DNA of 64,000 nucleotides from Myxococcales bacterium (lineage in GTDB: Bacteria > Myxococcota_A > Polyangia > GCA-2747355): positions 7,121 through 71,120 of the forward strand of contig JAGQIK010000493.1 of the NCBI GenBank assembly GCA_020431405.1, read 5' to 3'. The number at the start of each line of letters is the position of its first letter. Within the stretch, counting starts at the first letter, position 1. Of the stretch, positions 762 to 31,860 are shown one piece after another. A program made the position numbers and the translations under genes. Under the pieces are notes generated by a model. The model saw only the letters and a program-made list of their open reading frames with translations, ran no database searches and was not told the origin of the DNA.

Positions 762-798
762 GATCGAAGGCTCCCTTGGCTGCTCTTGAGGGGGGCGT

Positions 799-4038: not shown

Positions 4039-4103
4039 CGACGTTGTTCGCCGCGCCGGACGCGGTTATGTTTGTCGCGATGGAAACGTCCCGATCTAGA
4101 TCG

Positions 4104-4469: not shown

Positions 4470-4509
4470 GCCGCGCCGTGAAAGGTAGGAACCTGTGACC
4501 CCAGATCGT

Positions 4510-4899: not shown

Positions 4900-4974
4900 C
4901 CGCGAGGTCGCTGATCTTGGGCCGTTGCTCGCCTCGCGCGAATGCGCTACGAAGCGAGTAGAGGCACACACGAC

Positions 4975-5919: not shown

Positions 5920-5982
5920 GGGCGAGGAAAGCGCGAGGCGCCTAGTTTCGTGTTACATATCGGGCATCGTCAGGAGCTGCCG

Positions 5983-6504: not shown

Positions 6505-6506
6505 CG

Positions 6507-7007: not shown

Positions 7008-7100
7008 TGGGCGAGAGAATGCCCGTGGTGGGGGTGAAGCGGGGCAGGGTGGTGGCCAAAGGGTGAGAATCGCGAGCGGGTGAGTCGGCGAGGGGATTGC

Positions 7101-7132
7101 AGAGGCCTCCTGTGCACTACAGGAGGCCTTTT
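7101..7132 (+). terminator. Perfect 11-bp GC-rich hairpin plus T-run; its 3' arm contains the Shine-Dalgarno of the next gene
   Basis: AGGCCTCCTGT (7103-7113), loop GCACT, ACAGGAGGCCT (7119-7129), then TTT and ATG at 7133. AGGAGG at 7121-7126 is 6 nt from the ATG. Confidence 0.6.
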
Positions 7133-7572
<440 letters not shown>

Positions 7573-7576
<4 letters not shown>

Positions 7577-8754
7577 TCGACGCAGCGAGCGGCTTCTGCA
7601 CGGGCAGAGCGCAGCTCGGGGCGCCAGCGGAAGCGATCGATGGTCTTGCCTTCGAGGGCGTCGGCGACGAGCCGCCCGAGGATCGGGGCGAACTTGAAGG
7701 CGTGGCCGCTGCCGCCGGTGGCGACGGCGAGCCCCTCGCGCTCGGGGTGGCGCGCGATCCAGAAGTCGCCGTCCCAGCTGTCGGTGTACAAGCACAGGCG
7801 CGCGTAGCGCGGCCGCAGGCCGGCGAGCGCGGGCAGATAGCGCGCGAGGCCATCGCCGACGCGCGCGCGGTGTGCGGCGCTGACCTCGCGCGGCGCGTCG
7901 GCATCGATGACAGCGCCCGCGTCGTGCAGCGCCAGCTTGAGCACCCCCTCGCGCGGATGGATCGGAAAGCCGTAGAGACCCGTCGTCGCGATGTCGGCGG
8001 TGAAGAACGGCAGGCGCTCGTGCTGATAGTCGGCGGCCACCGCGTCGTCGACGCCGAAGTGAAAGAGCGCGTGACCGGTGGATCGTAGGCACGGCGCGAG
8101 CTCGGGCAGCAGCTTGGGGCTCCACGCACCCGCGGCGACGACGACCTCGTCGGCTAACAAAGTGTGTCCGCGCTCGTCCACCAGCCCCGTGACGCGCGAG
8201 CCGCGCTCGGCCAGCGCCGCGACGCGATACCCACCGCGCACCTCGACGCCGGCGGCCTGCGCGTCGCGCGCCAACCGCGCCACCACGCGCCCACTCTCGG
8301 CGTAGCCGCCGAGGGCGTGGAAGAAGCCGTCAACCCCAGCACCCCACGCCGGCACGCGCCGGTGCATCGCGGCTTCGTCGAGGCGCTCGACCTGGTGGCC
8401 GCGCGCGCGCAGCAGCTCGTAGCTGTCGTGCTCGAAGCTCCCGGGGCGCATCGGCTGGCTGGTGGCGACCAGCACGCCCACTTCGTGATAGAGCGGTTCG
8501 TCGCCGCCGCGCTGCCAGCGCGCCTGCAGATCGAGCCACGCCTCGCGCGCCTGCTCCATCAGCTCGGTGTAGAGCAGGTCGGCGCCGTACGTCATGCGCA
8601 CGGCCTTGCTGATGTCGCTGCTCGCCGCGTCGGCTGCCGGGATCTCGGCGCGGTCGACCAGCGTGACCCGCCGGCCACGTCGCCTCAGCTCGAGCGCCGT
8701 GCTGACGCCGAAGATGCCAGCACCGACCACGACCACGTGAGCATCGCGTGCCAT
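7573..8754 (-). CDS. FAD-dependent oxidoreductase, monomeric sarcosine/fructosyl-amine oxidase-like (DAO family)
   Basis: N-terminal HVVVVGAGIFGVSTALELRRRGRRVTLVD dinucleotide fold. C-terminal CLYTDSWDGDFWIARHP...VATGGSGHAFKFAPILG. Confidence 0.82.
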
Positions 8755-8784
8755 CAGGCGATGGTACTGCGATATGCTTGCCCC

Positions 8785-9327
8785 ATGCTCCGCTCCTGCG
8801 ATGTTCGTGTCATCTGCGCGGCCACCGTGGCGCTTCTGCTCGCCACCGGCTGCTCGTCGCGCGTCGAGAAGATCTGCAAGAAGATGGCGATCCTGATGGG
8901 GTCGAGCGCCGCCAGCGAAAAGAAGATCCGCCGCTGTATCAAGCGCGCCAAACGCGCCCAGCAGGCGATGCCCGAGCGCTTCGAGTGCCGCGCGCGCTGC
9001 ATCGAGTCATCGATCGATCGCACGGCCTTCAACGCCTGCAACGACAAGTGTGATCCAGCCGCCGCCGCTCGCCGCGCTGCCATCCGCGCCGCACGCGCGG
9101 CCGCCGCCAATCGCAGCTCGGGCGGCAAGCACACGGCGCTCGCGCTGCCGCGCGAGGTGCGGCGTAAGTGGTTCACCGAGTGCAACGCCAAGTGTCAGCA
9201 CTTCATCAAGGAAAGCGGCACGCCCCAGGAGCGCGTCGAAGGCACAAAGAAGGCAGGCTTGTGTACGAAAGACTGCATCAAGCTCAACATCACGACCTAC
9301 ATGTCGAACCTCAAGAAGAAGAAGTAG
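8785..9327 (+). CDS. Lys/Cys-rich lipoprotein, unknown function
   Basis: MLRSCDVRVICAATVALLLATGC lipobox. Repeated C..C helical-looking motifs. The ORF is open from 8164, but only this part has a signal peptide (alternative ATG at 8761). Confidence 0.5.
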   Translation: MLRSCDVRVICAATVALLLATGCSSRVEKICKKMAILMGSSAASEKKIRRCIKRAKRAQQAMPERFECRARCIESSIDRTAFNACNDKCDPAAAARRAAIRAARAAAANRSSGGKHTALALPREVRRKWFTECNAKCQHFIKESGTPQERVEGTKKAGLCTKDCIKLNITTYMSNLKKKK

Positions 9328-9347
9328 CAGCGCTGGCGCCGCGACGC

Positions 9348-9899
9348 ATGCTGCGGCGCGCAGCCGCGGTGCTGCCGGTCTGCGCGGTGCTGTCGCTCGG
9401 CGCGTGCGCCACAGCCGCGCCCGACGCTCGCCTCGCGACGACGCTTTCGCATGCGCGGCCAGACGTGTGCATGAGCGAGGCGGCGAACGGCAATCGCACC
9501 TACAAGCTCACAGCGCTGCCGGTCTCGCAAAGCGCCATGGGGTTTGTCGCCGAGGCGCAGACGGTGGGCAAGCGCCCCGCGACGGTGGTGAGCATGTCGT
9601 TCGTGGTGCGCAGCCCCAACTGGCGCTACGACAAATGCAGCACGCTGGCGCTCGGCGGCGCTGGCCGCGTGCGCGACGTGGCAGCCGAGCGCGACGGCAA
9701 GATCGTCAGCGACGGCGTCGTCGAGACGATCAGCTGGAAGATGCGGGTCGAGCGCATCGCCGAGCTGCTCGACGAGAACAAGCTGCAGTTTCATCTCTGC
9801 AATGACAATGGGCCGATGCCAGCGCGCACGATCAAGGCGCTGCGCTGGTTGGTCTCGACGGCGAGGAAGGCGGCCGATCTGCCGCCGTGCAAGAAGTAG
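9348..9899 (+). CDS. Lipoprotein, unknown function
   Basis: MLRRAAAVLPVCAVLSLGAC lipobox signal, in frame within ORF 9168..9899. Confidence 0.5.
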   Translation: MLRRAAAVLPVCAVLSLGACATAAPDARLATTLSHARPDVCMSEAANGNRTYKLTALPVSQSAMGFVAEAQTVGKRPATVVSMSFVVRSPNWRYDKCSTLALGGAGRVRDVAAERDGKIVSDGVVETISWKMRVERIAELLDENKLQFHLCNDNGPMPARTIKALRWLVSTARKAADLPPCKK

Positions 9900-9940
9900 C
9901 CGCGAGAGCTCGCCGCGGACGACCGCTCTGCGCCAGCGAG

Positions 9941-10720
9941 CTAGTCGCTAGCGAAATGCAGCTCGGCTGACAGCGGCAGGTGGTCGGAGGGCTGCTCGCC
10001 GCTCGGCAGCGGCGTTTCAGCCTCGATGGCTGGCGGCATGATCGGCGTCGCGTCGAGCGCAGCGCTGACAAACAGGTGGTCGATGAGCTGGAGGCGCGCG
10101 TTGGCGTTGCAGGTTGCCGCGCCGCTGCCTGCGTGCACGCAGTGCAAGCCGCGCTGCTCGAGCGTCGTGACGACGTCGCTTCCCGGCGCCGCGTTGAGGT
10201 CGCCGCAGACAAGCCACGCTGCGCAGCCAGGGGCGCGCTGCTCGCGCGTGTCGAGAAGCTGCTCGATCTGCGCGACCCCGAGCTTGTCGGCGCGCGCGGT
10301 CCGCGGTGGGTCCCAGCGCAGGTGCGTGTTGGCTACGGCGAGCGCGCGCTGATCGGCCACAGCGCGCACGATGGCGATCTGCGCCAGGTGGCCGCTGTTG
10401 TCGGCGTAGTAGAGCGGCTCGGGTGTCTCGAGCTCGAGTGTCTCGCGGCGGGCGAACAGCGCGGCACCGTCAGGCTTTGATCGACCCTTCATCGCCAGCG
10501 CGCCCACGAAGTGGGGCGCCAAGCGCGCCTCGATCGCCTCGAAGACCTCGCGCTCGACCTCCTGCAAGCAGATCAGATCGTGGTCGGCGCCGAGCGCTCC
10601 GACGGCGTCGACGAGCGCCGGGTGACGCCAGGCCGGATCGAGGAAGCGCTGCTCGACGCGCGGGTAGTAGTCGCGTCTGATGTAGCGCGTCGCCAGCACG
10701 TTGTAGGTCACGACGCGCAT
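9941..10720 (-). CDS. Endonuclease/exonuclease/phosphatase (EEP) family protein, CCR4/nocturnin-like, no signal peptide
   Basis: MRVVTYNVL..., LICLQEV, VANTHL, VCGDLN, C-terminal SDHLPLSAEL. GAGG SD upstream. Confidence 0.8.
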   Translation of the reverse strand: MRVVTYNVLATRYIRRDYYPRVEQRFLDPAWRHPALVDAVGALGADHDLICLQEVEREVFEAIEARLAPHFVGALAMKGRSKPDGAALFARRETLELETPEPLYYADNSGHLAQIAIVRAVADQRALAVANTHLRWDPPRTARADKLGVAQIEQLLDTREQRAPGCAAWLVCGDLNAAPGSDVVTTLEQRGLHCVHAGSGAATCNANARLQLIDHLFVSAALDATPIMPPAIEAETPLPSGEQPSDHLPLSAELHFASD

Positions 10721-10740
10721 CGCTCGAGCCTCGGGGAGCT

Positions 10741-11568
10741 CTAGAGCTCTTCCTCGAGCTCCTCTAGCTCGCCCGCCATCGCAGCGATCATCATCATCGC
10801 GTCGGCGGCCGCGGCGGCGATCTCTTCGTCGTGATGATCGACGAGCTCGGCGAAGATGGCGTCTGCGTCGTCGGTGGGCATGCCGACAGCCGCTTCGATG
10901 GCGGCCAGGCGCAGGTCCTTTTCGGTGTCCTCGGCCACCAGCAGCGCCTCGATCACGGGCCAGGCAGCCTCGATCTCCCAGGCTCCTGCGGCCAGCAGCG
11001 CCTCGCCACGAAGCAGGTCGCTCTCGCTGTCGAGCGCCTCGAGGATCTCGGTCTCGAAGCCGGGCACCCAGCGCATACAGAAGACGGCCGTCAGCTGCCA
11101 GTCATGGTCGTCGTGGGCGAAGGCGTTGGCGATGGCCTCGGCGTGCCAGTCCTGTGGCGCGCGCACAGCAGCCTCGAGCGCGCGGCGCCGCAGCAGCGGC
11201 GGCTGATCCTCGTCGGCGAAGATCTCCATCAGCGTGTCGCAGGCGAGTCGGAACGTCTCGACGCTCAGCACGGCGTCCTCGCCGAAGTCCCACTCGCCCT
11301 CTTCGTCGAACTCCTGCAGCGCCGGTCCGAGCGCCAGCGCCGCCTGCGCGCGCACTTCGTCAGCGAGCCCTTCGTCGTCGAGCAGCGCGCAGAGCGCGGC
11401 GGCGGTGACGTCATTGAGCACGCCGCCGACAGTGACCAGCTGAGCGGCGAGCATCAGCTCGTCATCGTCGCGCTCGGTCGGCGTGCCGAGCACAGCGATC
11501 AGCGCCTCCGTCGCGGTCTCGGGCCACTCGATGGGGTCGGTCTGCTGCAGCAGGTCGAGGTCTATCAT
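10741..11568 (-). CDS. Highly acidic alpha-helical (HEAT/ARM-like) repeat protein
   Basis: Only the last 275 codons of the 1004-aa ORF 10741..13755 look coding. ATG 11568 has a GGAGG SD. Recurrent R..AL.A/AA..AL helices and a very high D/E content. Confidence 0.5.
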   Translation of the reverse strand: MIDLDLLQQTDPIEWPETATEALIAVLGTPTERDDDELMLAAQLVTVGGVLNDVTAAALCALLDDEGLADEVRAQAALALGPALQEFDEEGEWDFGEDAVLSVETFRLACDTLMEIFADEDQPPLLRRRALEAAVRAPQDWHAEAIANAFAHDDHDWQLTAVFCMRWVPGFETEILEALDSESDLLRGEALLAAGAWEIEAAWPVIEALLVAEDTEKDLRLAAIEAAVGMPTDDADAIFAELVDHHDEEIAAAAADAMMMIAAMAGELEELEEEL

Positions 11569-11612
11569 CTGGCGCCTCCGTCTTGGCTGTCGAACAAGCG
11601 CACTCGCCGATC

Positions 11613-13877
11613 CTACTGCCCGTCGGACTTCGGTGGAATAGGCGGCGCCTTGCGCGGGGGGCCGCGTGGCGGCGGCGTGGCGCCGAGGGTCGCCTGCGCC
11701 GCGGCGAGCCGGGCCTCGTCGCGTTCGACCTCGCGTGCGACGGCGTGCATCTCCGACAGCAGCCCATGTTTGTGGCGGTAGTTGATGTCGGTGCCGATCT
11801 TGCGCGCCCTCATCGCGGTGTAGCGGCGGATGAAGCGGTCGCGCTCGGCGAGCTTGCGCTTGAAGATGCGCCGCAAGTCGTAGGCGTCGCGGATCACGTA
11901 GGGCGTCAGCACGATCACGATGCTGGTGCGCTGGCGCGACTTGCTGCGGTGCTTGAACAGGTAGCCCAGGATCGGGATGTCGCCGAGCAGCGGCACCTTG
12001 CTCACCGTCTCGTTGAGCCGGCTTCCTTGCAGCCCGCCGACGATCGCCGACTGCTGGTCGCCGAGCACGAGCGTGGTCTTGGTGCTGCGTTTGGACGTCG
12101 CCGGTCCGAGCCCGTTGAAGTTGGGCGACGTGATGTCTTGGATCTCGGCCTCGAGCTGGATGCGCACCATGCCGCGCGCGCCGATGTGCGGCGTCAGCTT
12201 GACCTTGAGCGCCACGTCCTGCCGCTGCACGTTGACCGTCGGCAGCGCGAGACCCGCGACCCCGCCGCCGAGCCGGCCGAGCGCCCCCTGAAACGGCAGG
12301 TTTTGACCGACCGTGATCTCGGCCTGCTCGTTGTCGGTTGTCAGCAGGTGCGGCGCCGACAGCACGTTGACGTTGCTGTCCGTGCCGAGCGCCTGGAGCA
12401 TGATGCCGAGCCCGGGGATGTCGGCCTGTAGCCCGAGCAGCTCGGCCGAGCCGTCGACCAGCGCGCCGCGCACGCCGGCGCTGAGCCCCTGCAGGCTCGA
12501 CAGGTCGAGCAGCAGCGAGCCGAGGCCCGAGTGCTGCACGCCGCCGAAGATGATCGCTTGCGAGTCGCCGCTGCCGGCGATGCCGCCGCCGTGGTAGGCG
12601 ATGCCGAGCCGCTGCTCGTGGTTGACCGACAGCTCGAGGATCGCCATCTCGACGAAGACCTGACGGCGCGGGATGTCTAGCTTCTTGATCAGCGGCCGAA
12701 GGCGCAGAAAGTCGGCGAGGGTCGACGCCACCAAGAGGCTGCTCGTCGACTTGTCGGCCGAGATCTGGACCTGCTTGCTGAAGAGCGGCCCCTTCTTGGA
12801 CTTGGCACCCGCCGCGAGGTAGCGACGCAGTCGCCGCTGCACGGAGCGGCCGCGGCTTCGCGAACGGCTCGCCGCGCTCGACGTGCCGACCACCGACGAG
12901 AGCACCTGCGCGAGCGCTTCGGCGTCGGCGTGCTGCAGCTTGACCACGTGCAGCCTGCGCCGAGCGTCTCCTTTGGTGGGCTGGTCGAGCTCGTCGATGA
13001 GCTTGCGAATGCCGGCGAAGTCGGCGCCCCGTGCGATGAAGATCAGCGAGTTGAGCACCGGCTCGACAAGGATCTTCGACGCCGAGGGCAATCCGAGCAG
13101 CTTGGCGCTGCGTTCCCTGGCGAGCTTTGGGATGCGCGTGAGCGGGTTCTGGAAGAACAGCTGCAGCATCACCTTGTGAAGGTCTTCGGCGTCGAGGTGC
13201 TTGAGTGTGACCATCCACACGCCGTCCTGCGCGAGCGGCACGTCGAGCTCGTCGACGATCTTGACCAGGCGGCGAATGTTGTTGGCGCCGCCGGCGAGGA
13301 TGATCGTGTTGGACGGCAAGTGGTAGCTCAGCGCCGCGCGATGGTGCTTCATCTTGTTGAGGATCGGCAGCAGCGCGCGCGCGTCGGCGTACACCGGCCG
13401 CAGCACCTTGGTGATCACGCGATCGTCGCGTGGGAACGCGCGCGAGTCGATGCCGTAGTACTCGGTGTCTTGCATCACCAGGTTGTTGACCTGCGAGATC
13501 TTGAGCAACGGCCCCGACTTGATGACGCTCGCGCCTCCGTAAAACAGCGTGGCGACCACGAGCCTGAAGATCTGTCGCGGCGACATGGGCACCGACACGA
13601 AGACGTGCATGCTCGGCAGGCGCAAGTCGGGGCGCACGACGAAGCGCTTGCACGTCAGCCGCGCGGCCACGGCGAGCAGCTCGCCGAACGTCATCGTCGT
13701 CTTGAGCCCGTACTTGCCGAGGCGCACCAGCTTGTCGGGCGGCACTTTGGCGCACGAGGTGTACGCGAGCTCCTCGGCGCTCGGCCTGCTCGTCGTCTCT
13801 TGCGCGCGCGCGCGGGTCGGCATCGCGAATGACAGCGCGGCGGCGAGGACGAGGCTATGAGGCAGGCGCGAGGGCAT
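11613..13877 (-). CDS. gspD: GspD-type secretin (N0/N1-like domains plus secretin domain) with a basic/Pro-rich C-terminal extension
   Basis: Signal peptide. Repeated N-domain pattern (VKLKHADAE.L...L). Secretin core VPLLGDIPILGYLFKHRSKSRQRTSIVIVLTPYVIRD. Confidence 0.88.
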   Translation of the reverse strand: MPSRLPHSLVLAAALSFAMPTRARAQETTSRPSAEELAYTSCAKVPPDKLVRLGKYGLKTTMTFGELLAVAARLTCKRFVVRPDLRLPSMHVFVSVPMSPRQIFRLVVATLFYGGASVIKSGPLLKISQVNNLVMQDTEYYGIDSRAFPRDDRVITKVLRPVYADARALLPILNKMKHHRAALSYHLPSNTIILAGGANNIRRLVKIVDELDVPLAQDGVWMVTLKHLDAEDLHKVMLQLFFQNPLTRIPKLARERSAKLLGLPSASKILVEPVLNSLIFIARGADFAGIRKLIDELDQPTKGDARRRLHVVKLQHADAEALAQVLSSVVGTSSAASRSRSRGRSVQRRLRRYLAAGAKSKKGPLFSKQVQISADKSTSSLLVASTLADFLRLRPLIKKLDIPRRQVFVEMAILELSVNHEQRLGIAYHGGGIAGSGDSQAIIFGGVQHSGLGSLLLDLSSLQGLSAGVRGALVDGSAELLGLQADIPGLGIMLQALGTDSNVNVLSAPHLLTTDNEQAEITVGQNLPFQGALGRLGGGVAGLALPTVNVQRQDVALKVKLTPHIGARGMVRIQLEAEIQDITSPNFNGLGPATSKRSTKTTLVLGDQQSAIVGGLQGSRLNETVSKVPLLGDIPILGYLFKHRSKSRQRTSIVIVLTPYVIRDAYDLRRIFKRKLAERDRFIRRYTAMRARKIGTDINYRHKHGLLSEMHAVAREVERDEARLAAAQATLGATPPPRGPPRKAPPIPPKSDGQ

Positions 13878-13967
13878 GACTATCCAGTAGCCGAGATAGC
13901 AAGGCCGATGCCGCCGGAGCGGCTAGTCAACCATTGGAAACTACTAGGAATATGGGGTCTATCGCAA

Positions 13968-13980
13968 TGCCAAAATGGCA
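13968..13980. promoter_or_regulatory. Palindrome TGCCA-AAA-TGGCA, about 80 nt upstream of the -24 element at 14060 (possible activator site)
   Basis: Perfect 5-3-5 inverted repeat in the AT-richer divergent region. Confidence 0.25.
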
Positions 13981-14058
13981 GCGCGGAAGCGCCTCACGTG
14001 CCGATGTGTCTCATGTGACCAAAGCCGCGCCACGCTAGTCGCGTCGGCGACTTGTTGG

Positions 14059-14074
14059 GGGCACGGGCGTTGCA
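14059..14074 (+). promoter_or_regulatory. Sigma-54-type -24/-12 promoter match in front of the Tae4-like gene
   Basis: GGGCACG-GGCG-TTGCA versus consensus TGGCACG-N4-TTGCW, with exact GG-N10-GC spacing. The predicted TSS (about 14085) leaves a roughly 18-nt leader carrying AAGGAG. Confidence 0.45.
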
Positions 14075-14102
14075 CGGCGATCTCGCACACAAGGAGCGCG
14101 AC

Positions 14103-14537
14103 ATGACTCGGCAGCTGCCGCCCTTCGACCATATGTGGGGCTCGTACCCGACCTACGCCAAGGCGCTCTCGATGGGAGCCGGGCTCAAACAATGGAGCCG
14201 TCTAAAGAACACCTGCGGCGTGCGCGTTAGCTACTGCCTCAACTACTGCGGCCACCCCATCCCGGCCCACGCCTTCGGGCTGCGCACGTGGAAGGGCGTC
14301 GACAACAAGTACTACTTGCCCTGGATGCGCGACGTTGAAGTCTACCTGGCGCGCGCCTACGCCCCCGCCGAGCGTGTCGGCTCGCAGCACGACGTCTCCG
14401 GGCGCCGCGGTGTGATCGCTTTCGAAGGGGGCTTCGCCAGCGTCACCGGCCACGTGGACTTGTGGAACGGCTCGCAGGCTGCCAACAACGCCTACTTCGG
14501 CTACGGCAGCACGATGTTCTTCTGGGAAGCGGACTAG
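14103..14537 (+). CDS. Tae4-like (T6SS amidase effector family 4-like) peptidoglycan amidase, 144 aa, no signal peptide
   Basis: AAGGAG SD at 14091-14096. Motifs FDHMWGSYP, KNTCGVRVSYCLNYCGHPIP (Cys38) and TGHVDLWNGS (His117). Size and motif order match my recollection of the Tae4 family. Confidence 0.68.
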   Translation: MTRQLPPFDHMWGSYPTYAKALSMGAGLKQWSRLKNTCGVRVSYCLNYCGHPIPAHAFGLRTWKGVDNKYYLPWMRDVEVYLARAYAPAERVGSQHDVSGRRGVIAFEGGFASVTGHVDLWNGSQAANNAYFGYGSTMFFWEAD

Positions 14538-14557
14538 CGGCCGAGCGCGGCCGAGAG

Positions 14558-16258
14558 CTACTGCAGGATCAGGCTCGCGCGCGGCAGCACCACGACGTTG
14601 TCCGCCGCGATCGACTGGTTGCTGATCAAGTCGGTGAAGTAGCCCTTCTTGATGTGGTCGAGCTTGATCGTCTGCGACGTGTCAGAGCGATTGATCACCA
14701 CCACCAGCGTTTCCTTGCCGTCGCTGCGTGTGAAGGCGTAGACGTCGTCGGCGAGCCAAGCTTCTTTGCGCGCGCCGCGGCGCAGCGCCGGGTGAGCCGC
14801 GCGGATCTTGGTCAGCTGTTTGATGTGGTCGCGCAGTGCGAGCTGGTGCGGGTTTTCGCCGCCCCAGGTCATCATGCGGCGGTTGTCGGGATCGCCGGCG
14901 CCCGCCATGCCGATCTCGTCACCGTAGTAGATCAGCGGGATGCCCTGGATGCCGAACAGCAGCGTGAACGCGGTGGCGAGTCGCTCGTAGGGGCGCGCGT
15001 AGGTCGGCTGCGTCGGCCGGTTGTTCCACGCGCGCTCCTTGCCGCCGCCCCATTCATCCCACAGCGAGTTGTCTTCGGCGATGTGGATCGGCCGCGGCAG
15101 ATCGTGGTTGCCGATAAACGTGCTCATGATCGAGCCCGGCCCGTAGAACGTGTCGTTGCTGTTCATGAACGTGTCGAGCTCTTTGAGGCTGCCCTGGCGG
15201 CGCAGCAGCGTCTTGACGACTACCGCGCGCAGCGGGAAGTCGAACTGACCGTCGAGCTTGTTCGAGGGATCGACGTAGGCCTTGATCACGCCGCGGTCGC
15301 CGTCGAACGTCTCTCCGACCATGTAGAAGCGTCCGCCGGTGGTGCCGATGCCCTGCGACTTGAGCGCGCTGCGCAGATCCACCAGCCAGCTGTCCTCGAT
15401 GTGCTTGACCGCGTCGAGGCGGAAGCCGTCGATGCCCGTCTGCTTGACCCAGCCGACGGCGTTGCCCACCGAGAAGCTGCGCGCCGCGGGGACGGTGAAG
15501 TTGAAATCGGGCAGAAACGGGTCGAACCAGCAGCGAAGCCCATCCGAGCCGCCCCACGAGCAGCCGCCGCCGCACACGCACGTGGCGCCGTTCTTGTCGA
15601 GCGGCCAGAACCAGCCCTGGTTCTGCTGGTAGGTGGGCGACGTGTCGTGCACGTGATTCATCACGTAGTCGAAGATGACTTTGATGCCCGCCTTGTGCGC
15701 TTCGTCGACGACCTGCTTGAGCAGCGCCACGTCGCCGAGGCGCTCTTCGACCTTCGTCAGGTCCGCCGGCCAGTAGCCGTGATAGCCGGTGTAGTCGTGG
15801 CCATCGGTGCCCGGGTACTTGCCGTCGGGCGCGTCCACCGGCGAGCTGAGCCACAGCACGTTGACGCCGAGGTCGGTGAAGTAGCCCGACTTGATGCGCG
15901 ACAGCAGGCCGGCCAGGTCACCGCCCTGCCAGTTGGCGGCGGTCTCGACGTTGGGCTCGGGTTTGTTGTTGCTCGAGTTGCCGTCGTAGAAACGATCGAG
16001 CAGCACGAAGTACATCACGCCATCGCGCCAGTCGAACGTGCCGGGCGGCAGCGGCCCGTCGGGAAGCGGCGGCGGTCCGTCGGTCACCGGTGGTGTGCCG
16101 TCGGGTCTCGGGCCGTCGGTGCCGGGCGTGACGTTGCCATCGGCGTCGGCGGTGCCCGCGTCGCCCCTGAGCGCAGCGTCAAAGTACAGCGACGGCGGCA
16201 GCTCGGAGCAGGCGACGCTGGCGAGCGCGACCAGGGCGATGGTGAGGGTGCGGGTCAT
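14558..16258 (-). CDS. GH13 alpha-amylase family lipoprotein
   Basis: MTRTLTIALVALASVAC lipobox (Met66 of ORF 14558..16453). GH13 regions GFRLDAVKHI, YMVGETF, FIGNHDLPR. Confidence 0.88.
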   Translation of the reverse strand: MTRTLTIALVALASVACSELPPSLYFDAALRGDAGTADADGNVTPGTDGPRPDGTPPVTDGPPPLPDGPLPPGTFDWRDGVMYFVLLDRFYDGNSSNNKPEPNVETAANWQGGDLAGLLSRIKSGYFTDLGVNVLWLSSPVDAPDGKYPGTDGHDYTGYHGYWPADLTKVEERLGDVALLKQVVDEAHKAGIKVIFDYVMNHVHDTSPTYQQNQGWFWPLDKNGATCVCGGGCSWGGSDGLRCWFDPFLPDFNFTVPAARSFSVGNAVGWVKQTGIDGFRLDAVKHIEDSWLVDLRSALKSQGIGTTGGRFYMVGETFDGDRGVIKAYVDPSNKLDGQFDFPLRAVVVKTLLRRQGSLKELDTFMNSNDTFYGPGSIMSTFIGNHDLPRPIHIAEDNSLWDEWGGGKERAWNNRPTQPTYARPYERLATAFTLLFGIQGIPLIYYGDEIGMAGAGDPDNRRMMTWGGENPHQLALRDHIKQLTKIRAAHPALRRGARKEAWLADDVYAFTRSDGKETLVVVINRSDTSQTIKLDHIKKGYFTDLISNQSIAADNVVVLPRASLILQ

Positions 16259-16266
16259 CGACGTTC

Positions 16267-18168
16267 TCACTGCTTGACCAGAATGCGCGCGCCGAGGCAC
16301 GGCACGTCGACGTCGAGGGTGCCGTCCTGGCCGACGGTGAACGTGCCGCCCGCGCCGTCGGGCATCATGTCGGTAAGCTTGGTGCCGGCGGCGAAGCCGG
16401 TTTTCATCAGGTTCGCGCCGTCGCGCGTGCGCGAGCTCTTCTTGTCGTCGCACTGATGCGCGTTGACGGCGACCAGCACGTGGTCGCCTTCGTGCTGGCG
16501 TTCGAAGGCGAAGATGCCAGCGTCATCCTCTGTGCCGGTGTGGTCGGTGGACCAGCGGATCTCGAAGCTGCCGCGGCGCAGCGCGGCGTGCTCTTTGCGC
16601 AGCTTGGTCAGCCCGGAGATGCGCATGAACGTGTCGTTGGTGGTGTCGTACGGCGAGAGCCCGCGCTTGCGGTTGCCGAGCCACATGTCCTCGCGGTTGG
16701 AGGGGTCGTTGCCGCCGTCGAACTGCTGCTCGGTGCCGTAGTAGATGCAGGGGATGCCGACGGTGGTGAGTAGGTACGTCAGCGCGACGCCGAGGCGCTG
16801 CACGCCGTCGTCGCCCGTGTTGTTGAGGAAGCGCTCGACGTCGTGGTTGTCGATGAAGTTGACGAGCGCGTCGCGCGGCGCCACGCCGATGCCCGACTGG
16901 TGCGGGCGGTCGTGATAGAGGCGCACGCGGTCTTGATGCAGGCGCTCGATCTCGCGCGTTGGTCCGCCGTGTTTGAACACGTTGTCGAAGACGCGGTACT
17001 TCTGCGAGAAGTAGAACACCGAGTCGACCTGCTCGCGGTCGGTGTAGCTGGCCAGCAGGCTGTCGGCACCGGAGAACGCCTCGCCGAACATGAAGAAGGT
17101 CTTCTTGCCGAGCCCCACCGCGTGCGCGCGCATGGCTGGGCCGAACTGCTCCCAGAAGCCGTGCTCGACGTGCTTGAGCGTGTCGATGCGGAAGCCATCG
17201 AAGTCGCCGACCTCGATCCAGTACTTGAAGACGCCGATCAGCGCCTGGCGTACGTCGTCGCGCTCCGTGGCGAGATCCTTGAGGCCGCCCGGGAAGTCGC
17301 CCTTGGTCTCCTGCTCGCGCAAGTACGGGCACAGCTCGGTGTTGTTTTCGGGCGCCGTCGGACAGAACTCGCCGCCGAGCGGTGGCTTGTTCTCCCAGAC
17401 CGTGATGCGGCCGCGGCGGTGATACCAGGCCGGGTTCTGGAAGAACTCGGGCTGCACCGGCACGCGGCCGATCTTCGGCTGGTAGACCCACACGATCGGC
17501 GCGCGGCCGGCCTCGCCGAGCGAGGTGAAGGACTGGATGCCGCGGCTGTCGTAGTCCGGATCCCACTCGCTGGTGCGCGTGAGCTTGCCCGGGTTGTCGG
17601 GGTTGCGCGAGCCGTAGGAGGCGCCGCCGCCGCCGAACAGGATGTCGTCGGCGCGGCCGTTCATGTTGACGTCGTAGTAGAAGAGCGGCCCGATGTGGTT
17701 GGTGACGATGTCGAGGATCACCTTGAAGCCGTTGTCGTGCAGCTGATCGACGAGCTCCTGCATCTTGGCCAGATCACCGAAGTGCTGGTTGACCGACAGG
17801 AAGTCTTGCGTCCAGTAGCCGTGGTAGCCGGCGAAGCCCGCGTCCTCCTCGATGTTCTTGACCACCGGGCTGATCCAGATCGCCGTCACGCCGAGCTTCT
17901 TGAGGTACGGGATGCGCTTGATCAGGCCTTGCCAGTCGCCGCCGTGGTAGCGGCCCATGTGCGTGCGGTCGACGCCGAAGTCGTTTGAGTAGTCGCCGTT
18001 GGCGAAGCGGTCGACGAAGACCTGGTAGATCACCTCGTCGCGCCAGTCGGTGGAGCCGGGGGTGATCCTGCGCTCGCCCGCGATGCCGGGCTCGGGCGTG
18101 TGGCAGGCCGCTGCCGCGAGGGCACACGCGAGCGCTGCGAAGGTGATCTTCTTCATGCTTACGTCCAT
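16267..18168 (-). CDS. GH13 alpha-amylase family lipoprotein
   Basis: MKKITFAALACALAAAAC lipobox (start at 18168 or 18156). GH13 regions GFRIDTLKHV, FMFGEAF, FIDNHDVERF. Its stop is 8 nt from the next start. Confidence 0.88.
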   Translation of the reverse strand: MDVSMKKITFAALACALAAAACHTPEPGIAGERRITPGSTDWRDEVIYQVFVDRFANGDYSNDFGVDRTHMGRYHGGDWQGLIKRIPYLKKLGVTAIWISPVVKNIEEDAGFAGYHGYWTQDFLSVNQHFGDLAKMQELVDQLHDNGFKVILDIVTNHIGPLFYYDVNMNGRADDILFGGGGASYGSRNPDNPGKLTRTSEWDPDYDSRGIQSFTSLGEAGRAPIVWVYQPKIGRVPVQPEFFQNPAWYHRRGRITVWENKPPLGGEFCPTAPENNTELCPYLREQETKGDFPGGLKDLATERDDVRQALIGVFKYWIEVGDFDGFRIDTLKHVEHGFWEQFGPAMRAHAVGLGKKTFFMFGEAFSGADSLLASYTDREQVDSVFYFSQKYRVFDNVFKHGGPTREIERLHQDRVRLYHDRPHQSGIGVAPRDALVNFIDNHDVERFLNNTGDDGVQRLGVALTYLLTTVGIPCIYYGTEQQFDGGNDPSNREDMWLGNRKRGLSPYDTTNDTFMRISGLTKLRKEHAALRRGSFEIRWSTDHTGTEDDAGIFAFERQHEGDHVLVAVNAHQCDDKKSSRTRDGANLMKTGFAAGTKLTDMMPDGAGGTFTVGQDGTLDVDVPCLGARILVKQ

Positions 18169-18172
18169 AGGG

Positions 18173-19672
18173 CTAACGTATCAGCGAGAAGCTGTTGAGC
18201 CACCACTCGACCTGAATCCCGAGGTAGTGCTGCACCGCCTCGCCGTAGCGCTGATCTTCGACCGGGTAGCCCAGCTGCGCGCCGCGGTCGAGCACCGACA
18301 GCGTGTAGAGCAGCCGGATCTGCGGTCGGCTGTAGACGCCGCGCTTCCAGTTGAGCGTGGGCATCACGGTGAACTTGAAGACGGTCGGCTTGAGCTGCGT
18401 CTGCGTGCGCGGGTTGAGGCCGTCGGGGCGGCGGTGCTGGATCGACGCTTCGAATGCTTGGTGAAACCAGTCGGTGATGATCAGGTGCGGGCGCGCCGCG
18501 AAGACGAGCTCCCAGCCATCGTCGAAGTCGCTCTGCACGCCGTCGCCGTCGCGGAAGTAGCGCGCGTAGCCGCCCCAGGTGACGCCGAGCAAGCCGCGCT
18601 CGTAGTTTCCGGCCGCGGCGAGCACGATCTCGCGCGCGTCGGCGGAGGTCTTGTCGGGGCCGAGGCCGCGCGGCACAGCGAGGTCGCCGTAGGCGGCAAG
18701 CCCGCCGGCGAAGCGCGCCCAGAAGTTGAGGAAGCCGTTGTTCTGGCCGAAGGACCAGAAGCCCACCTGCGCGCCGACGACCCAGCCGGCGTCCTGCGGC
18801 AGCTCTTCTTCGATCAGCGGATCACCGGTTTCGCGGCGCGTACCGGAGGGCAGGTAGTGGATCTCGCCGTAGCCGACGATCTTCATGCACAGCTTGCCCC
18901 AGATGTTGTCGAACTGCTGGGTGATCTTGATGCTGCCGATGGTGCGCTGGCGATCGAGCACGTCCACCGGCTCGGTGCCAAACGTCGGCGCCGGCACGTC
19001 GAGCCGCTGCAGCTGAAACGGATCGTCGAGGCGGTTGACGCCGACGTGCAGGTCGATGCGCGTCTTGCTGCGCAGCTGGATGCCCGCGCCGCCGCCGATG
19101 GTGTTGAGGTTGTCGAGCGGCCAGTAGTCGAGCAGGTAGATGTCGTTGCCGCGATACATGCGCGAGCCGGCCCAGAAGGAGAGGCCTGGGATAAAGACGT
19201 TCTCGGCCTGTGCGAAGAGGTTGCGTACCGCCAGCGTCGCCTCGAACTTGCCGTTGTAGTGAAAGAAGTCTTCGAAGAAGGCGAGCGTGAAGGCGATGCG
19301 GAAGCGGAAGTTGTTCTTGCCGCGCTCGAGCACGTAGCCGAGGTCGAACTCGGCGTAGGGCGACTCCTCGAGGCGCGGGCCGTGCGAGACGACATTGAGC
19401 GACTTGGCTTTGGAGCCTTCGTCGAGGTCGCTCGAGATGCCCATGCGGCCGTAGGTGCCGAAGCGAAAGCCGCCGAGCAGGTCGAGCACGCGCTTGGTCA
19501 GCCCGCTCTGCGGCTGCTTTTGCATCAAGTCACCGCCCTTGCTGTCGCTGTCGGCGGGCGACGGCTTGGGCTGACCGGCTGTGGTGGCGGGCTGAGCTTC
19601 TGCGTGCGGCGCGGCGAGGAGCGTGAGCGACAGCAGAGCGAACGTGAAAGATATGGCGCGCGCGAGGTTCAC
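18173..19672 (-). CDS. Maltoporin/LamB-family carbohydrate porin
   Basis: GTG 19672 gives the signal peptide VNLARAISFTFALLSLTLLAAPHAEA. The mature part is FGTYGRMGIS...FWAGSRMYRGNDIYLLDYWPLDNLN, typical of sugar porins. Confidence 0.75.
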   Translation of the reverse strand: MNLARAISFTFALLSLTLLAAPHAEAQPATTAGQPKPSPADSDSKGGDLMQKQPQSGLTKRVLDLLGGFRFGTYGRMGISSDLDEGSKAKSLNVVSHGPRLEESPYAEFDLGYVLERGKNNFRFRIAFTLAFFEDFFHYNGKFEATLAVRNLFAQAENVFIPGLSFWAGSRMYRGNDIYLLDYWPLDNLNTIGGGAGIQLRSKTRIDLHVGVNRLDDPFQLQRLDVPAPTFGTEPVDVLDRQRTIGSIKITQQFDNIWGKLCMKIVGYGEIHYLPSGTRRETGDPLIEEELPQDAGWVVGAQVGFWSFGQNNGFLNFWARFAGGLAAYGDLAVPRGLGPDKTSADAREIVLAAAGNYERGLLGVTWGGYARYFRDGDGVQSDFDDGWELVFAARPHLIITDWFHQAFEASIQHRRPDGLNPRTQTQLKPTVFKFTVMPTLNWKRGVYSRPQIRLLYTLSVLDRGAQLGYPVEDQRYGEAVQHYLGIQVEWWLNSFSLIR

Positions 19673-19685
19673 GCGCAGCGGCAAA

Positions 19686-19700
19686 GCAACGATTATGCCG
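19686..19700 (-). promoter_or_regulatory. Sigma-54-type -24/-12 match in front of the porin-amylase operon
   Basis: Minus strand CGGCATA-ATCG-TTGCT with GG-N10-GC spacing. The -12 C is 13 nt from GTG 19672, which implies a leaderless mRNA. No SD is visible. Confidence 0.3.
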
Positions 19701-19751
19701 GGGATATCGCGCGAGAGATCCGGCGCGATCTCAACGCCGACGCCGCGGGCG

Positions 19752-19768
19752 CGTTGCCTTTTGCAACG
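19752..19768. promoter_or_regulatory. Palindrome CGTTGC-CTTTT-GCAACG, about 60 nt upstream of the -24 element
   Basis: Perfect 6-bp arms. The same GTTGC-N5-GCAAC core recurs at 25501..25515. Confidence 0.3.
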
Positions 19769-19832
19769 GCTGCCGCGTGGGCGGCGCGCGCGAGGCGTTG
19801 CGAAAGTCGGCGCGCTGCCGCAGGCTGAAACG

Positions 19833-20636
19833 ATGCACAGGATGGTGGTTGGAGGGCTGGTTTGGGGGCTCGCTGTCGCCGTAGTCGCGGCGCCGGGCGC
19901 GGCGGCGGCAGCGCCGGTATCGAAGCAGCTGATCCGCAAGCGCTGCACCAACTACGACCGGCACGTGTTGGCGCGCGGCAAGCTCGAGATCTCGCCGGTC
20001 AGCGGTGGCCAGCACGGCTATCTGGTGACGGTCGGCAAGGGCCGCAAGCGCTCGCGCTGGTTCGCGTACTTTCACAGCAAGCGCAAGTGCCGCGCGCTGC
20101 GCATCGGGCCGACGATCCGCGGACGGCTGGGGCCGGCGGGTGCGCAGGTGCGCGTGCTGGCCGGCAAGTGGCAGAGCAACGGCGGCCCCGAGGGCTCGGA
20201 GGGCAAGGGGGTGGTGCTGTGGGATCTCGGCGGCGGCAAGTACCACGCGCTGCTCGACGGCTGCGACTACCAGCACAAGCTGACCAAGGTGTCGCTGTAT
20301 CCCGGCAAGGCCGAGACGCTGCGCGTGATCTGCTACGAGAGCAATCAGACCGACTATTCCGCGACGATCGACTTCGCGCACTGGCTCGACGCGAAGAAAC
20401 CGAGCTGGGTCTTCAGCGCGAGCATCGGCCACGGCACCAACGCGCAGAACCCGCCAGTTCGCGCGCAAGGGTGGGTGCGCATCCGCCGCCGCGGCGTGCG
20501 GCCCGTGCTGCGTTCCTACCAGGCCTACGCGACGGATTCAGGCCGCGAGAACTGGCGCGTCACGGACCACGTATGGGATCCGAAGGCGCGCAAGTTCAAG
20601 CTCAGCCCCAAGCTGCTCAAGAAGAAAGACCTCTAG
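19833..20636 (+). CDS. Secreted basic protein, unknown function
   Basis: MHRMVVGGLVWGLAVAVVAAPGAAAAA signal-like N-terminus within ORF 19623..20636. The 3' end overlaps the convergent gene by 20 nt. Confidence 0.45.
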   Translation: MHRMVVGGLVWGLAVAVVAAPGAAAAAPVSKQLIRKRCTNYDRHVLARGKLEISPVSGGQHGYLVTVGKGRKRSRWFAYFHSKRKCRALRIGPTIRGRLGPAGAQVRVLAGKWQSNGGPEGSEGKGVVLWDLGGGKYHALLDGCDYQHKLTKVSLYPGKAETLRVICYESNQTDYSATIDFAHWLDAKKPSWVFSASIGHGTNAQNPPVRAQGWVRIRRRGVRPVLRSYQAYATDSGRENWRVTDHVWDPKARKFKLSPKLLKKKDL

Positions 20637-31831: not shown

Positions 31832-31846
31832 TGGCATATGGCGTGC
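31832..31846 (+). promoter_or_regulatory. Sigma-54-type -24/-12 match in front of the M23 lipoprotein gene
   Basis: TGGCATA-TGGC-GTGCT with GG-N10-GC spacing. The -12 C is 14 nt from ATG 31861 (leaderless geometry). No SD is visible. Confidence 0.3.
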
Positions 31847-31860
31847 TTCTAGCTGCCGCC

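Follow-up and report, generated by a model that had tools for sequence, protein, structure and literature searches.

Tae4 is a textbook type VI secretion system (T6SS) toxin, defined by the pairing of an effector with its immunity protein. In the enzymes of Enterobacter cloacae and Salmonella Typhimurium (EcTae4 and StTae4; 4hfk, 4hfl, 4hff, 4j30 and 4jur), the catalytic triad has its Asp at position His+11, flanked on both sides by an essential Cys (PMC3695027). The importance of the C-x3-C Cys and of Asp residues in Tae4 was reported in the same study, together with the finding that the canonical disulfide, which is made in the periplasm, is required for toxicity (PMC3695027). In the second Tae4 type, the triad Asp is found at His+2, i.e., Asp135 in SmTae4 and Asp133 in AtTae4 (PMC6277958); these two enzymes, from Serratia marcescens (Ssp1/Ssp2, 4bi3/4bi4) and Agrobacterium tumefaciens (6ijf), keep the C-x3-C disulfide. 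The genes of the Enterobacter/Salmonella type overlap a downstream tai4 and adjoin hcp, tssC and FHA/tagH, an arrangement recovered in the present analysis (L049, L053 and L054), and SmTae4 and AtTae4 have been shown to be T6SS substrates, encoded in T6SS clusters with an adjacent Tai4/Rap immunity gene.

Cytoplasmic NlpC/P60 and CHAP enzymes with γ-glutamyl specificity, e.g., YkfC and Gsp amidase, are also established. YkfC possesses N-terminal SH3b domains, and its gene shares an operon with those for a dipeptide epimerase and a transporter. The YkfC-type γ-D-Glu-L-Lys/mDAP endopeptidases are cytoplasmic and immunity-free, and YkfC is among the structural homologues listed for StTae4 (PMC3695027). 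The gene described here lies in a 64-kb window, i.e., the whole stretch of myxobacterial DNA that was analysed (64,000 nt), and encodes a Tae4-family protein that departs from the characterised effectors in several respects (Table 1).

Table 1. The Tae4-family gene, its predicted functional residues and its flanking features, in window positions
Feature	Positions	Strand	Remarks
Orphan GspD-type secretin	11613..13877	-	Pfam Secretin, Secretin_N x3
Divergent intergenic region, Tae4/secretin, 225 nt	13878..14102		No coding ORF
Shine–Dalgarno AAGGAG	14091..14096	+	6-nt spacer to ATG 14103-14105; read from sequence
Tae4-family gene, monocistronic	14103..14537	+	144 aa, single domain, pI 9.0, 16.2 kDa
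Codon Cys38, predicted catalytic nucleophile	14214..14216	+	Aligned to EcTae4 Cys46 and StTae4 Cys44
Codon His117, predicted catalytic base	14451..14453	+	Aligned to EcTae4 His128 and StTae4 His126
Codon Asp119 (His+2), predicted third triad residue	14457..14459	+	SmTae4/AtTae4 type
Codons Ala126-Ala127-Asn128-Asn129-Ala130	14478..14492	+	Against Cys-Ser-Asp-Asp-Cys of EcTae4
Gap to convergent amylase, 20 nt	14538..14557		Too short for any gene
GH13 alpha-amylase	14558..16261	-	Convergent; amylase-amylase-LamB maltodextrin cluster to 19951

The gene, its fold and its putative active site

The Tae4 ORF is a real, expressed-type gene, as seen from its strong Shine–Dalgarno sequence, its GC3 of 0.89 (0.91–0.93 in the adjacent genes), a composition native to the surrounding DNA, and identical metagenome copies. 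The identical protein was found on four independent metagenome contigs (samples ERZ28655542, ERZ28655136, ERZ27309265 and ERZ28656026), each with the same amylase downstream; the gene differs by 0–1 nt among these contigs (one synonymous change, G48T), which is too little variation for dN/dS. The product is basic, and its pI of 9.0 was counted in favour of an effector.

The resemblance of the product to Tae4 is far beyond chance. Pfam Tae4 (PF14113) was matched with 56.9 bits against a cutoff of 27 (E = 2.9e-15), residues 35–129 aligning with profile positions 2–110 of 125, and a family profile built in this analysis was matched with 162 bits. Among the Tae4 chains in the PDB that were matched by sequence using HMMER, EcTae4 and StTae4 were the best (E = 1.7e-15). 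Since a single-sequence AlphaFold run gave a pLDDT of only 28, an AlphaFold2 model from an 89-sequence MSA was used instead (pLDDT 92, pTM 0.87). The top 11 Foldseek matches of this model in the PDB are Tae4-family chains only (TMq 0.76–0.86, best E = 1.7e-12), with TMq values of 0.80–0.86 for EcTae4/StTae4 and 0.76–0.77 (E about 1e-7) for SmTae4 and AtTae4. Nothing significant was returned beyond the Tae4 family, the next match having E = 0.26, and no YkfC-like match was seen; NCBIfam and PHROGs gave no match to the protein. The profile and the predicted fold support a Tae4-family papain-like (NlpC/P60) amidase, which by homology would cut the γ-D-glutamyl-meso-diaminopimelate bond of the peptide stem.

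The protein carries the motifs F8..MWGSYP16, K35NTC38GVRVSYCLNYCGHPIP54 and T115GH117VDLWNGS124. HMMER alignments to 4hfk, 4jur and 4j30 place Cys38 and His117 on the catalytic pair, and the equivalents of both residues are catalytic in characterised Tae4 (PMC3695027). Their columns are conserved as Cys in 146 and as His in 149 of the 150 family representatives. The Asp position of the Enterobacter/Salmonella type (His+11) is occupied by Asn128, whereas Asp119 corresponds to the triad residue at His+2 (G-H-x-D) in SmTae4 and AtTae4, with which the protein also shares its single-domain size. This column is Asp in 102 of the 150 representatives and in 40 of 59 Tai4-less loci. The predicted triad Cys38–His117–Asp119 would be of the Serratia/Agrobacterium type, with a putative geometry. 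Among 24 family positions checked, 18 are kept, including N36, C38, R41, S43, N47, G65, Y71, G103, F107, G116, H117, D119, W121, Y131, F132 and W141. Position 74, which is R/K in 137 and Arg in 131 of the 150 representatives, is Trp uniquely in this protein, and the exchange of this near-invariant Arg could alter substrate binding; the protein also departs from the family at V75, G87, P89, D113 and A114.

The C-x3-C motif expected after the catalytic His is absent. In the alignment with EcTae4, 'gsqaannayf' stands against 'gnicsddchf', showing that Ala126 and Ala130 replace both disulfide Cys residues, in contrast to SmTae4 and AtTae4. The motif is likewise lost in most Tai4-less relatives. 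Such a loss would suit an enzyme operating in a reducing compartment.

The original prediction of a Tae4-like amidase, encoded by a 144-aa ORF with a strong Shine–Dalgarno sequence, was borne out by the Pfam match and by an MSA-based model that matches solved Tae4 structures alone (TM up to 0.86). The three motifs that it quoted were found exactly, and its catalytic pair, Cys38 and His117, agrees with the alignments. However, its reading of the active site overlooked the third triad residue at His+2, and its motif description, correct as written, overlooked the loss of the conserved disulfide pair. The gene codes for a genuine, and probably active, Tae4-family peptidoglycan amidase.

Genomic context and export signals

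The 53 window proteins scanned with Pfam, which are essentially all GC3-supported genes, include no member of a T6SS family, and phmmer searches of the six-frame 64-kb window with Pfam-verified Hcp, TssC, VgrG, PAAR and FHA/TagH seeds gave no match. A Tai4 HMM, whose seed was verified as PF16695 and which finds 30 ORFs in proteobacterial loci, did not match the six-frame window either (--max, best E = 3.6). The ORFs in the 225-nt gap are 34–77 aa long, with GC3 values of 0.54–0.76 and no hydrophobic N-terminus; a hidden immunity gene in the gaps was ruled out, since the gap ORFs are non-coding by GC3 and the Tai4 HMM is negative. In a separate comparison, 70 small ORFs located beside Tai4-less relatives were run against the window, where the matches were confined to response regulators and one antisense artefact. 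Thus, in contrast to SmTae4 and AtTae4, this gene is accompanied neither by an immunity gene nor by any T6SS gene in the 64 kb.

The 225-nt region showed no Rfam match and no sigma-70-like consensus, the 20-nt gap showed no intrinsic terminator, and scanning both gaps for promoter or terminator consensus sequences and for repeats gave nothing over background. The secretin is the first gene of a secretin/HEAT-like/EEP-phosphatase string (HEAT_2 and Exo_endo_phos downstream), and its best homologues (44–47% identity) come from Myxococcales and 'Deltaproteobacteria' MAGs, which marks the host as Myxococcota-like. A link between the secretin and Tae4 was rejected, because the nearest GspD homologue sits in a full gspC-M (T2SS) operon that is without Tae4. 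None of the related Tae4 loci has a secretin neighbour, and the adjacency is therefore no evidence for an export route. Other window genes were considered as well. An EEP gene follows Tae4-PGB in L091, but it has no similarity to the EEP gene of the window, and the link was rejected. A DUF2254 gene in the window is 42% identical to a gene near Tae4 in L086-88, and an EF-G paralogue is 41% identical to a gene after Tae4-PGB in L010/L018/L026; synteny was rejected here too, as two independent events stand against about three expected by chance.

A signal peptide or lipobox was sought in the protein, including its longest possible in-frame extension, and none is possible. This extension, starting at TTG 14052 downstream of a stop at 14016–14018, would add 17 non-hydrophobic residues, and Kyte–Doolittle hydropathy averaged over 15 residues peaks at 0.25 within the first 50 residues, showing that no signal peptide is present. 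Pfam also found no PG-binding or SH3 module in the protein.

These results agree with the earlier description of a gene that has no signal peptide, no immunity gene or gap ORF that could encode one, no T6SS context, and a convergent amylase 20 nt away (last base of the Tae4 stop codon at 14537, end of the amylase gene at 14558). The divergent 225-nt region and the secretin starting at 13877 were also correctly described, the secretin being an orphan GspD paralogue.

A Tai4-less branch in Myxococcota and Acidobacteriota

A word-indexed homology search returned only the protein itself, and the relatives discussed here were obtained from an exhaustive HMMER search. In protein-level searches, identity stayed at or below 49% along any aligned stretch, or about 43% where the match covered most of the domain, and the nearest relatives by identity and tree position (34–43% identity) belong to the Myxococcota and Acidobacteriota. 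No positional orthologue of the locus was found; the degenerate pattern of a genome scan misses the V-T-G-H of this protein, so that orthologues could escape that scan.

In a set of 85 related loci, Tai4 is present at about 27 proteobacterial loci, in most cases along with the C-x3-C motif, and 16 of these about 27 loci have T6SS genes. When about 58 Tai4-less relatives were searched in the same way, no T6SS gene turned up in the ±10 kb around any of them, and all Myxococcota and Acidobacteriota loci examined are without both Tai4 and T6SS genes. The Tai4-less, T6SS-unlinked layout is thus the rule for a large Myxococcota/Acidobacteriota branch. Because the same layout is found throughout this branch, it is unlikely that such genes were merely rearranged away here. 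The case that the original prediction had named against itself, i.e., orthologous loci with immunity and T6SS genes, was not encountered, as the branch relatives have neither.

The motif G-H-x-D-L-W is shared with uncharacterised proteins such as those of Minicystis rosea (DSM 24000, CP016211, L013) and Paraliomyxa miuraensis (SMH-27-4, L015) and with P0003, P0154, P0193 and P0174/P0201, the last pair being Tae4-PG_binding_1 proteins. A Tai4-less homologue is also carried by a complete acidobacterial genome, CP065003. As in the present case, the Myxococcota/Acidobacteriota relatives mostly have no C-x3-C motif and no signal peptide, and they sit in scattered housekeeping neighbourhoods. Unlike these relatives, the protein has Trp for the conserved Arg74 and no PG-binding/SH3 domain, and near its N-terminus it reads 'GAGLKQWSRLKNTC' where they have 'IGGxVDAxWIxNTC'.

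Many Myxococcota/Acidobacteriota loci encode signal-less proteins, some of which are fused to a PG-binding domain. Many Myxococcota Tae4-PG_binding_1 proteins (e.g., L014, L016, L018, L019, L026 and P0201) begin at the Tae4 domain, with no N-terminal extension possible. The many signal-less Tae4-PG_binding_1 proteins of Myxococcota suggest that a non-Sec route must exist for the branch. Close relatives have PG_binding_1 or SH3 fusions, or lipoprotein/signal peptides, which points to peptidoglycan as the target of the branch.

At least two paralogues occur in at least three MAG assemblies (L016/L024, L026/L038 and L027/L033), and the neighbourhoods of Tai4-less loci are variable and without conserved synteny, a combination that amounts to effector-like population genetics. 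Clustering of the neighbours gave only Ser/Thr kinases, about as frequent as chance would predict in Myxococcota, one cluster resembling histidine kinases, and genes confined to particular lineages. A recurrent partner family beside Tai4-less Tae4 was rejected.

Function, delivery and significance

The reading favoured here, with a probability of about one half, is that the gene encodes a peptidoglycan amidase of the Tai4-less branch and that this enzyme is a cell-wall-degrading effector leaving the cell by a non-Sec route; its bond specificity, activity, export and target are the parts that we infer. Such an antibacterial or lytic effector would be made in the cytoplasm, where it would be unable to reach the producer's own wall, and would get out without the help of a Sec signal. 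The simplest assumption would be that it travels as orphan cargo of a T6SS whose genes lie in another part of the genome; another contact-dependent route or release by lysis may serve as alternatives. A distant T6SS is feasible, since T6SS genes have been reported in Myxococcales, Polyangiales and Nannocystales (PMC10196010). Against the effector reading stand the absence of T6SS genes from the 64 kb and from ±10 kb of the relatives, the absence of the immunity gene that T6SS amidases normally need against sister-cell fire, and the lost disulfide and Trp74 in place of Arg.

The main rival is a cytoplasmic housekeeping γ-D-glutamyl-diamino-acid amidase acting on free murein peptides, or on another γ-glutamyl amide, comparable in function to Bacillus YkfC or E. 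coli MpaA, which would need neither export nor immunity. This explanation, although unlikely, accounts well for several observations: no signal peptide is possible, the periplasm-dependent disulfide is gone, the missing immunity gene is expected, and the gene is monocistronic and native in composition amid housekeeping and carbohydrate-use genes, its nearest stand-alone relatives likewise having housekeeping genes around them. The protein would also share the papain-like superfamily and the bond class with YkfC. However, it is a 144-aa single domain without SH3b or an epimerase/transporter operon, and the significant Foldseek matches are T6SS Tae4 effectors only. No murein-peptide catabolism or uptake genes were seen beside this gene or its relatives, and no related locus has a peptide transporter, L-Ala-D/L-Glu epimerase, Mpl, LdcA or AmpG-type recycling genes. 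Furthermore, the nearest relatives by distance include extracytoplasmic PG_binding_1 fusions and lipoproteins, and a recycling enzyme would not typically have several paralogues per genome, nor occur so patchily and in such variable contexts.

Machines that span the envelope are often served by peptidoglycan hydrolases of their own, and developmental lysis occurs in myxobacteria. An autolysin acting on the producer's own wall, for instance during lysis that is developmental or programmed, or to remodel the wall around an envelope machine such as the adjoining secretin, would agree with the predicted amidase fold, the apparently intact triad and the divergent promoter region common to the Tae4 and secretin genes. 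It would have to reach the periplasm by a holin-like or leaderless route, and this explanation is improbable: the protein lacks a signal peptide, the neighbourhood has neither a holin nor a phage-type gene (PHROGs negative), no other Tae4-like locus adjoins a secretin, and the T2SS operon of the nearest GspD homologue is without Tae4.

It is similarly a long shot that the signal-less, Tai4-less Tae4-like proteins of Myxococcota, including the PG_binding_1 fusions, are wall-degrading cargo of non-T6SS contact-dependent prey killing, for which the Tad-like Kil apparatus, the needle-less T3SS* or a secretin-based system would be candidate routes; delivery only into prey would explain the absence of an immunity protein. 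A decaying or neofunctionalised effector remnant, no longer an active amidase and hence tolerated without immunity, is very doubtful: the protein is a long-branch member of the family tree with a low family-profile score (162 bits, compared to roughly 155–216 for 119 other matches listed), the departures at position 74 and elsewhere and the lost disulfide, but Cys, His, Asp(His+2) and other core positions checked are retained, the full-length ORF has typical coding GC3, a strong Shine–Dalgarno sequence and a model pLDDT of 92, the disulfide loss and missing Tai4 are common to dozens of relatives, and a long branch is expected from a deep-branching host lineage, in which even GspD shares no more than 47% identity with any known protein.

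In Myxococcota and Acidobacteriota, a large branch of Tae4 has thus kept the catalytic machinery but lost its immunity partner, its linkage to the T6SS and the disulfide that depends on the periplasm. Its members often have no export signal, including some that carry a fused peptidoglycan-binding domain. A PF14113 match alone should therefore not be annotated as 'T6SS effector'. If cytoplasmic, the protein would be an example of a toxin fold recruited into housekeeping. If exported, the branch would matter because, to our knowledge, the lytic effectors of contact-dependent myxobacterial killing have not been identified, and it would point to an uncharacterised strategy of delivery and self-protection in bacteria known for prey lysis.

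Family membership, fold and catalytic residues

Judged by its sequence, modelled fold and predicted catalytic residues, the 144-aa query protein belongs to the Tae4 family. Its sole Pfam match is Tae4 (PF14113; E=2.9e-15, 56.9 bits against a curated cutoff of 27), the family named in the original prediction, and in the PDB it matches significantly in sequence only the Tae4 chains of Enterobacter and Salmonella (E down to 1.7e-15). AlphaFold gave a pLDDT of 28 on the single sequence, and a pLDDT of 92 with a pTM of 0.87 when an 89-sequence homologue alignment was supplied. The expected likeness to solved Tae4 structures was found by Foldseek against the PDB, in which the first eleven matches to the query model were all Tae4-family effectors (StTae4 of Salmonella Typhimurium, EcTae4 of Enterobacter cloacae, Serratia Ssp proteins and AtTae4 of Agrobacterium tumefaciens; TM-scores 0.76-0.86), the next match having E=0.26.

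Cys38 and His117, the proposed catalytic pair, align with StTae4 Cys44 and His126, both of which are essential by mutagenesis (PMC3695027), and their columns hold Cys in 146/150 and His in 149/150 family representatives, supporting their predicted role. Two triad geometries occur in the family, with the Asp either at His+11 between two cysteines (Ec/St) or at His+2 (SmTae4 of Serratia marcescens and AtTae4) (PMC6277958). The query reads G-H117-V-D119, i.e., it has the Asp at His+2, the commonest state in the family (102 of the 150 representatives), while Asn128 occupies the Ec/St triad-Asp position and Ala126 and Ala130 replace both flanking cysteines. These cysteines are needed for Ec/St Tae4 toxicity (PMC3695027) and are disulfide-bonded in EcTae4 (PMC3695027) and AtTae4 (PMC6277958). 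The query retains 18 of 24 family positions checked, the most striking departure being residue 74 (codon 14322-14324), where it alone among the 150 representatives has Trp, against Arg/Lys in 137. Position 113, usually Asp in the family, is Ser. From the alignment, Trp74 and Ser113 may have cost the protein a salt bridge or changed its substrate pocket.

A word-indexed homology search returned only the query itself. When 1.84 billion cluster representatives were searched exhaustively with HMMER, 414 matched at E<=1e-3, none more than 49% identical over the matched stretch or more than about 43% over most of the domain. In the sources, proteins of this kind are called hypothetical or 'peptidoglycan-binding protein', or bear the transferred name 'T6SS amidase effector Tae4'. 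The neighbouring secretin has its best homologues in MAGs of Myxococcales and 'Deltaproteobacteria', at just 44-47% identity, so the host is a deep-branching, uncultured Myxococcota-like organism. Because the host is so isolated, the long branch of the query should not be over-read as fast evolution. An identical protein is encoded on four short metagenome contigs, each time with the same amylase downstream, the gene copies being <=1 synonymous base apart.

The best-scoring relative (P0002, 448 aa) is Cys-rich and has three tandem Tae4 domains with acidic Thr/Glu/Asp linkers between them, and a related form, P0010 (176 aa), has a single domain and a signal peptide. The unusual N-terminal motif of the query, GL(K/R)(Q/K)W..KNTC, is present in both, and they may be eukaryotic dae4-like genes. 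A full-text literature search for Tae4 with Myxococcus, for PF14113 and for dae4/domesticated amidase gave no paper with these terms in title or abstract, and a few passing mentions. A C-terminal Tae4 domain was also seen in two giant proteins, of 3,443 aa (in Lyngbya confervoides) and 7,065 aa (P0081), which is a polymorphic-toxin-style deployment outside the T6SS-cargo architecture.

The locus and its neighbours

The ORF, its Shine-Dalgarno sequence and the motifs originally described are all present, and the gaps to the convergent GH13 amylase gene (20 nt) and to the divergent secretin gene (225 nt) measure as claimed. Taken alone, the locus looks like an ordinary small gene. Its GC3 of 0.89 is the same as that of its neighbours (0.91-0.93), base composition reveals no island around it, and the flanking gaps contain neither an Rfam family nor a consensus promoter or terminator. 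The claim that neither gap encodes an immunity protein stands, as the upstream-gap ORFs (34-77 aa, GC3 0.54-0.76) have no hydrophobic N-terminus. The reading frame can be extended by 17 polar residues at most (in-frame stop at 14016-14018), and N-terminal Kyte-Doolittle hydropathy peaks at 0.25 over 15 residues, which together exclude a Sec, Tat or lipoprotein signal, as had been supposed.

Coordinates of features in the window and at the loci of Tae4 relatives
Feature	Position	Strand	Remark
Tae4-like ORF	14103-14537	+	ATG start, 144 codons
Shine-Dalgarno AAGGAG	14091-14096	+	six nucleotides before ATG
Maltodextrin-use cluster	14558-19951	-	two GH13 alpha-amylases, then LamB-type maltoporin
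Secretin string	9941-13877	-	GspD-type secretin (754 aa, weak N0 domain), HEAT-repeat-like protein, EEP-family phosphatase/nuclease
Peptidase_M23-segment protein	31843-34551	+	903 aa
Shared-neighbour candidate, DUF2254	36761-38374	-	
Shared-neighbour candidate, EF-G paralogue	45085-47142	+	
trmD-PF09936 fusion	57820-59220	+	467 aa
Tae4-PG_binding_1 fusions	about 10001-10740 in most		L011, L014, L016, L018-L021, L026, L030, L037, L089, L091
Lipoprotein gene next to Tae4	9306-9980		L085; 224 aa
Giant protein with C-terminal Tae4 domain	17-10348		L047

Pfam scans of 53 window proteins, covering essentially all GC3-supported genes, found housekeeping and envelope functions (including gyrA, atpB, a gltB-like gene, EF-G, a rimM-trmD-rplS cluster, coaX and ABC transporters) and no T6SS family. 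Pfam-confirmed Hcp, TssC, VgrG, PAAR and FHA/TagH sequences likewise gave no match when searched against the window in six frames, upholding the reported lack of T6SS context across the 64-kb window, and a Tai4 HMM found no gene for this cognate immunity protein in the window. The direct surroundings consist of the maltodextrin cluster on one side and the secretin string on the other. One of the two amylases is apparently a lipoprotein, and the amylase-amylase-LamB cluster forms a starch-uptake module of the outer membrane, here in a Myxococcota-like genome. Elsewhere, within a khpA-like/rimM/trmD/rplS cluster, trmD (tRNA m1G37 methyltransferase) shares one ORF with a further SAM-dependent RNA methyltransferase domain, and a protein encoded divergently from gyrA, with a short Peptidase_M23 segment as its only recognisable domain, is a potential further wall-active enzyme.

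The divergent neighbour has a Secretin and three Secretin_N domains, and neither gspC nor gspE-M lies near it. A secretin-based export route suggested by this adjacency is unsupported, since the nearest GspD homologue (45% identity) sits in a complete gspC-D-E-F-G-H-I-J-K-L-M T2SS operon without a Tae4 gene, and no other Tae4-like locus examined has a secretin neighbour. T2SS substrates require a signal peptide, so the leaderless query fits this route poorly in any case.

Tai4-linked and Tai4-less loci

Searching by profile and scanning 185,579 species genomes yielded 261 loci, 80 of them retained. As the query's own V-T-G-H falls outside the pattern used for the scan, true orthologues in this collection may be missed. 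The best loci belong to Nannocystales, Polyangiaceae, Minicystis rosea, Paraliomyxa miuraensis, other Myxococcota, Bryobacterales and Pyrinomonadaceae, followed by Proteobacteria including Enterobacter. After ORF calling in 85 fetched loci, the genes flanking Tae4 were clustered, the largest cluster being a 117-147-aa gene that overlaps the 3' end of the Tae4 gene and that Pfam identifies as Tai4 (PF16695). An HMM of this cluster matched 30 ORFs in about 27 of the 85 loci, all labelled proteobacterial, and none in any Myxococcota or Acidobacteriota locus. Genes for hcp, tssC, vgrG, PAAR or FHA/tagH lie within 10 kb in 16 of the ~27 Tai4-linked loci and in 0 of ~58 Tai4-less ones. The C-x3-C motif tracks Tai4 linkage, in that C-x3-C with Thr at His+2 occurs in 15/26 linked loci and Asp at His+2 without C-x3-C in 36/59 unlinked loci.

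In a neighbour-joining tree, the query stands on a long branch beside Tai4-less leaves (87/100 bootstraps), and the 15 sequences nearest to it are all Tai4-less Myxococcota proteins. Independent Pfam-annotated neighbourhoods (+-10 kb) of six Tai4-less relatives (P0193, P0154, P0201, P0174, P0187, P0224) contained unrelated housekeeping genes and no T6SS or Tai4 family. The lone arrangement is thus a property of the whole family branch, and these loci make it unlikely that adjacent immunity and T6SS genes were simply rearranged away here. Two window genes resemble neighbours of relatives, namely a DUF2254 gene (42% identical to its counterpart in L086-L088, which lies two genes upstream of Tae4 there) and an EF-G paralogue (41% identical to the gene directly downstream of the Tae4-PG_binding_1 fusion in L010/L018/L026, Polyangiaceae). 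These two events were rejected as synteny, as by our estimate chance would give roughly three.

Lipoprotein or Sec signals occur in some branch members (L009, L012, L025, L036, L042) and SH3 (PF08239) or PG_binding_1 (PF01471) modules in others, all of which are hallmarks of peptidoglycan enzymes working outside the cytoplasm. No signal peptide is possible in many Myxococcota members, both ~145-aa stand-alone forms and a recurrent fusion of about 240 aa with N-terminal Tae4 and C-terminal PG_binding_1; in L014, L016, L018, L019 and L026 the maximal ORF starts at the Tae4 domain. No T6SS or Tai4 gene lies within 10 kb of the Myxococcota fusion loci, and for a leaderless protein to carry a wall-binding module implies that it leaves the cell by a non-Sec route. 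At least three MAG assemblies hold >=2 paralogues. A few Tai4-less loci (L085, L057, L008, L060) have an adjacent same-strand gene for a small lipoprotein or signal-peptide protein, that of L085 lying 21 nt upstream of the Tae4 gene without a Pfam match, and such genes could be a new, non-Tai4 immunity family. No homologue of these candidates is encoded in the window, and many other Tai4-less Tae4 genes are, like the window's, monocistronic between convergent or divergent neighbours.

Probable role and export

Characterised Tae4 effectors have a disulfide pair, a Tai4 partner and T6SS linkage, whereas the query has none of the three. We put at roughly 0.5 the probability that it is an exported effector. 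The gene would make an active gamma-D-Glu-mDAP peptidoglycan amidase, with the triad Cys38-His117-Asp119 predicted from the alignment, that would do no damage inside the cytoplasm of the producer and, after leaderless export, would act on the walls of other cells. To our knowledge, the T6SS is the only export route demonstrated for the Tae4 family. As T6SS genes have been reported from Myxococcales, Polyangiales and Nannocystales (PMC10196010), the economical reading of the route would be orphan cargo of a T6SS encoded far from the Tae4-like gene. However, T6SS linkage is absent across the whole branch, no immunity gene would guard against fire from sister cells, and the periplasm-formed disulfide is lost. 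The same three observations favour the main rival, a cytoplasmic gamma-glutamyl peptide amidase serving, e.g., murein-peptide catabolism, which nevertheless seems rather unlikely given the lack of linkage to recycling genes, the wall-binding fusions among the nearest relatives, and the paralogy and variable context within the branch. An autolysin, the other role first proposed, and a decaying relic of an effector are both improbable.

The pattern across the branch raises a testable question, namely how Myxococcota deploy immunity-free, leaderless wall amidases.
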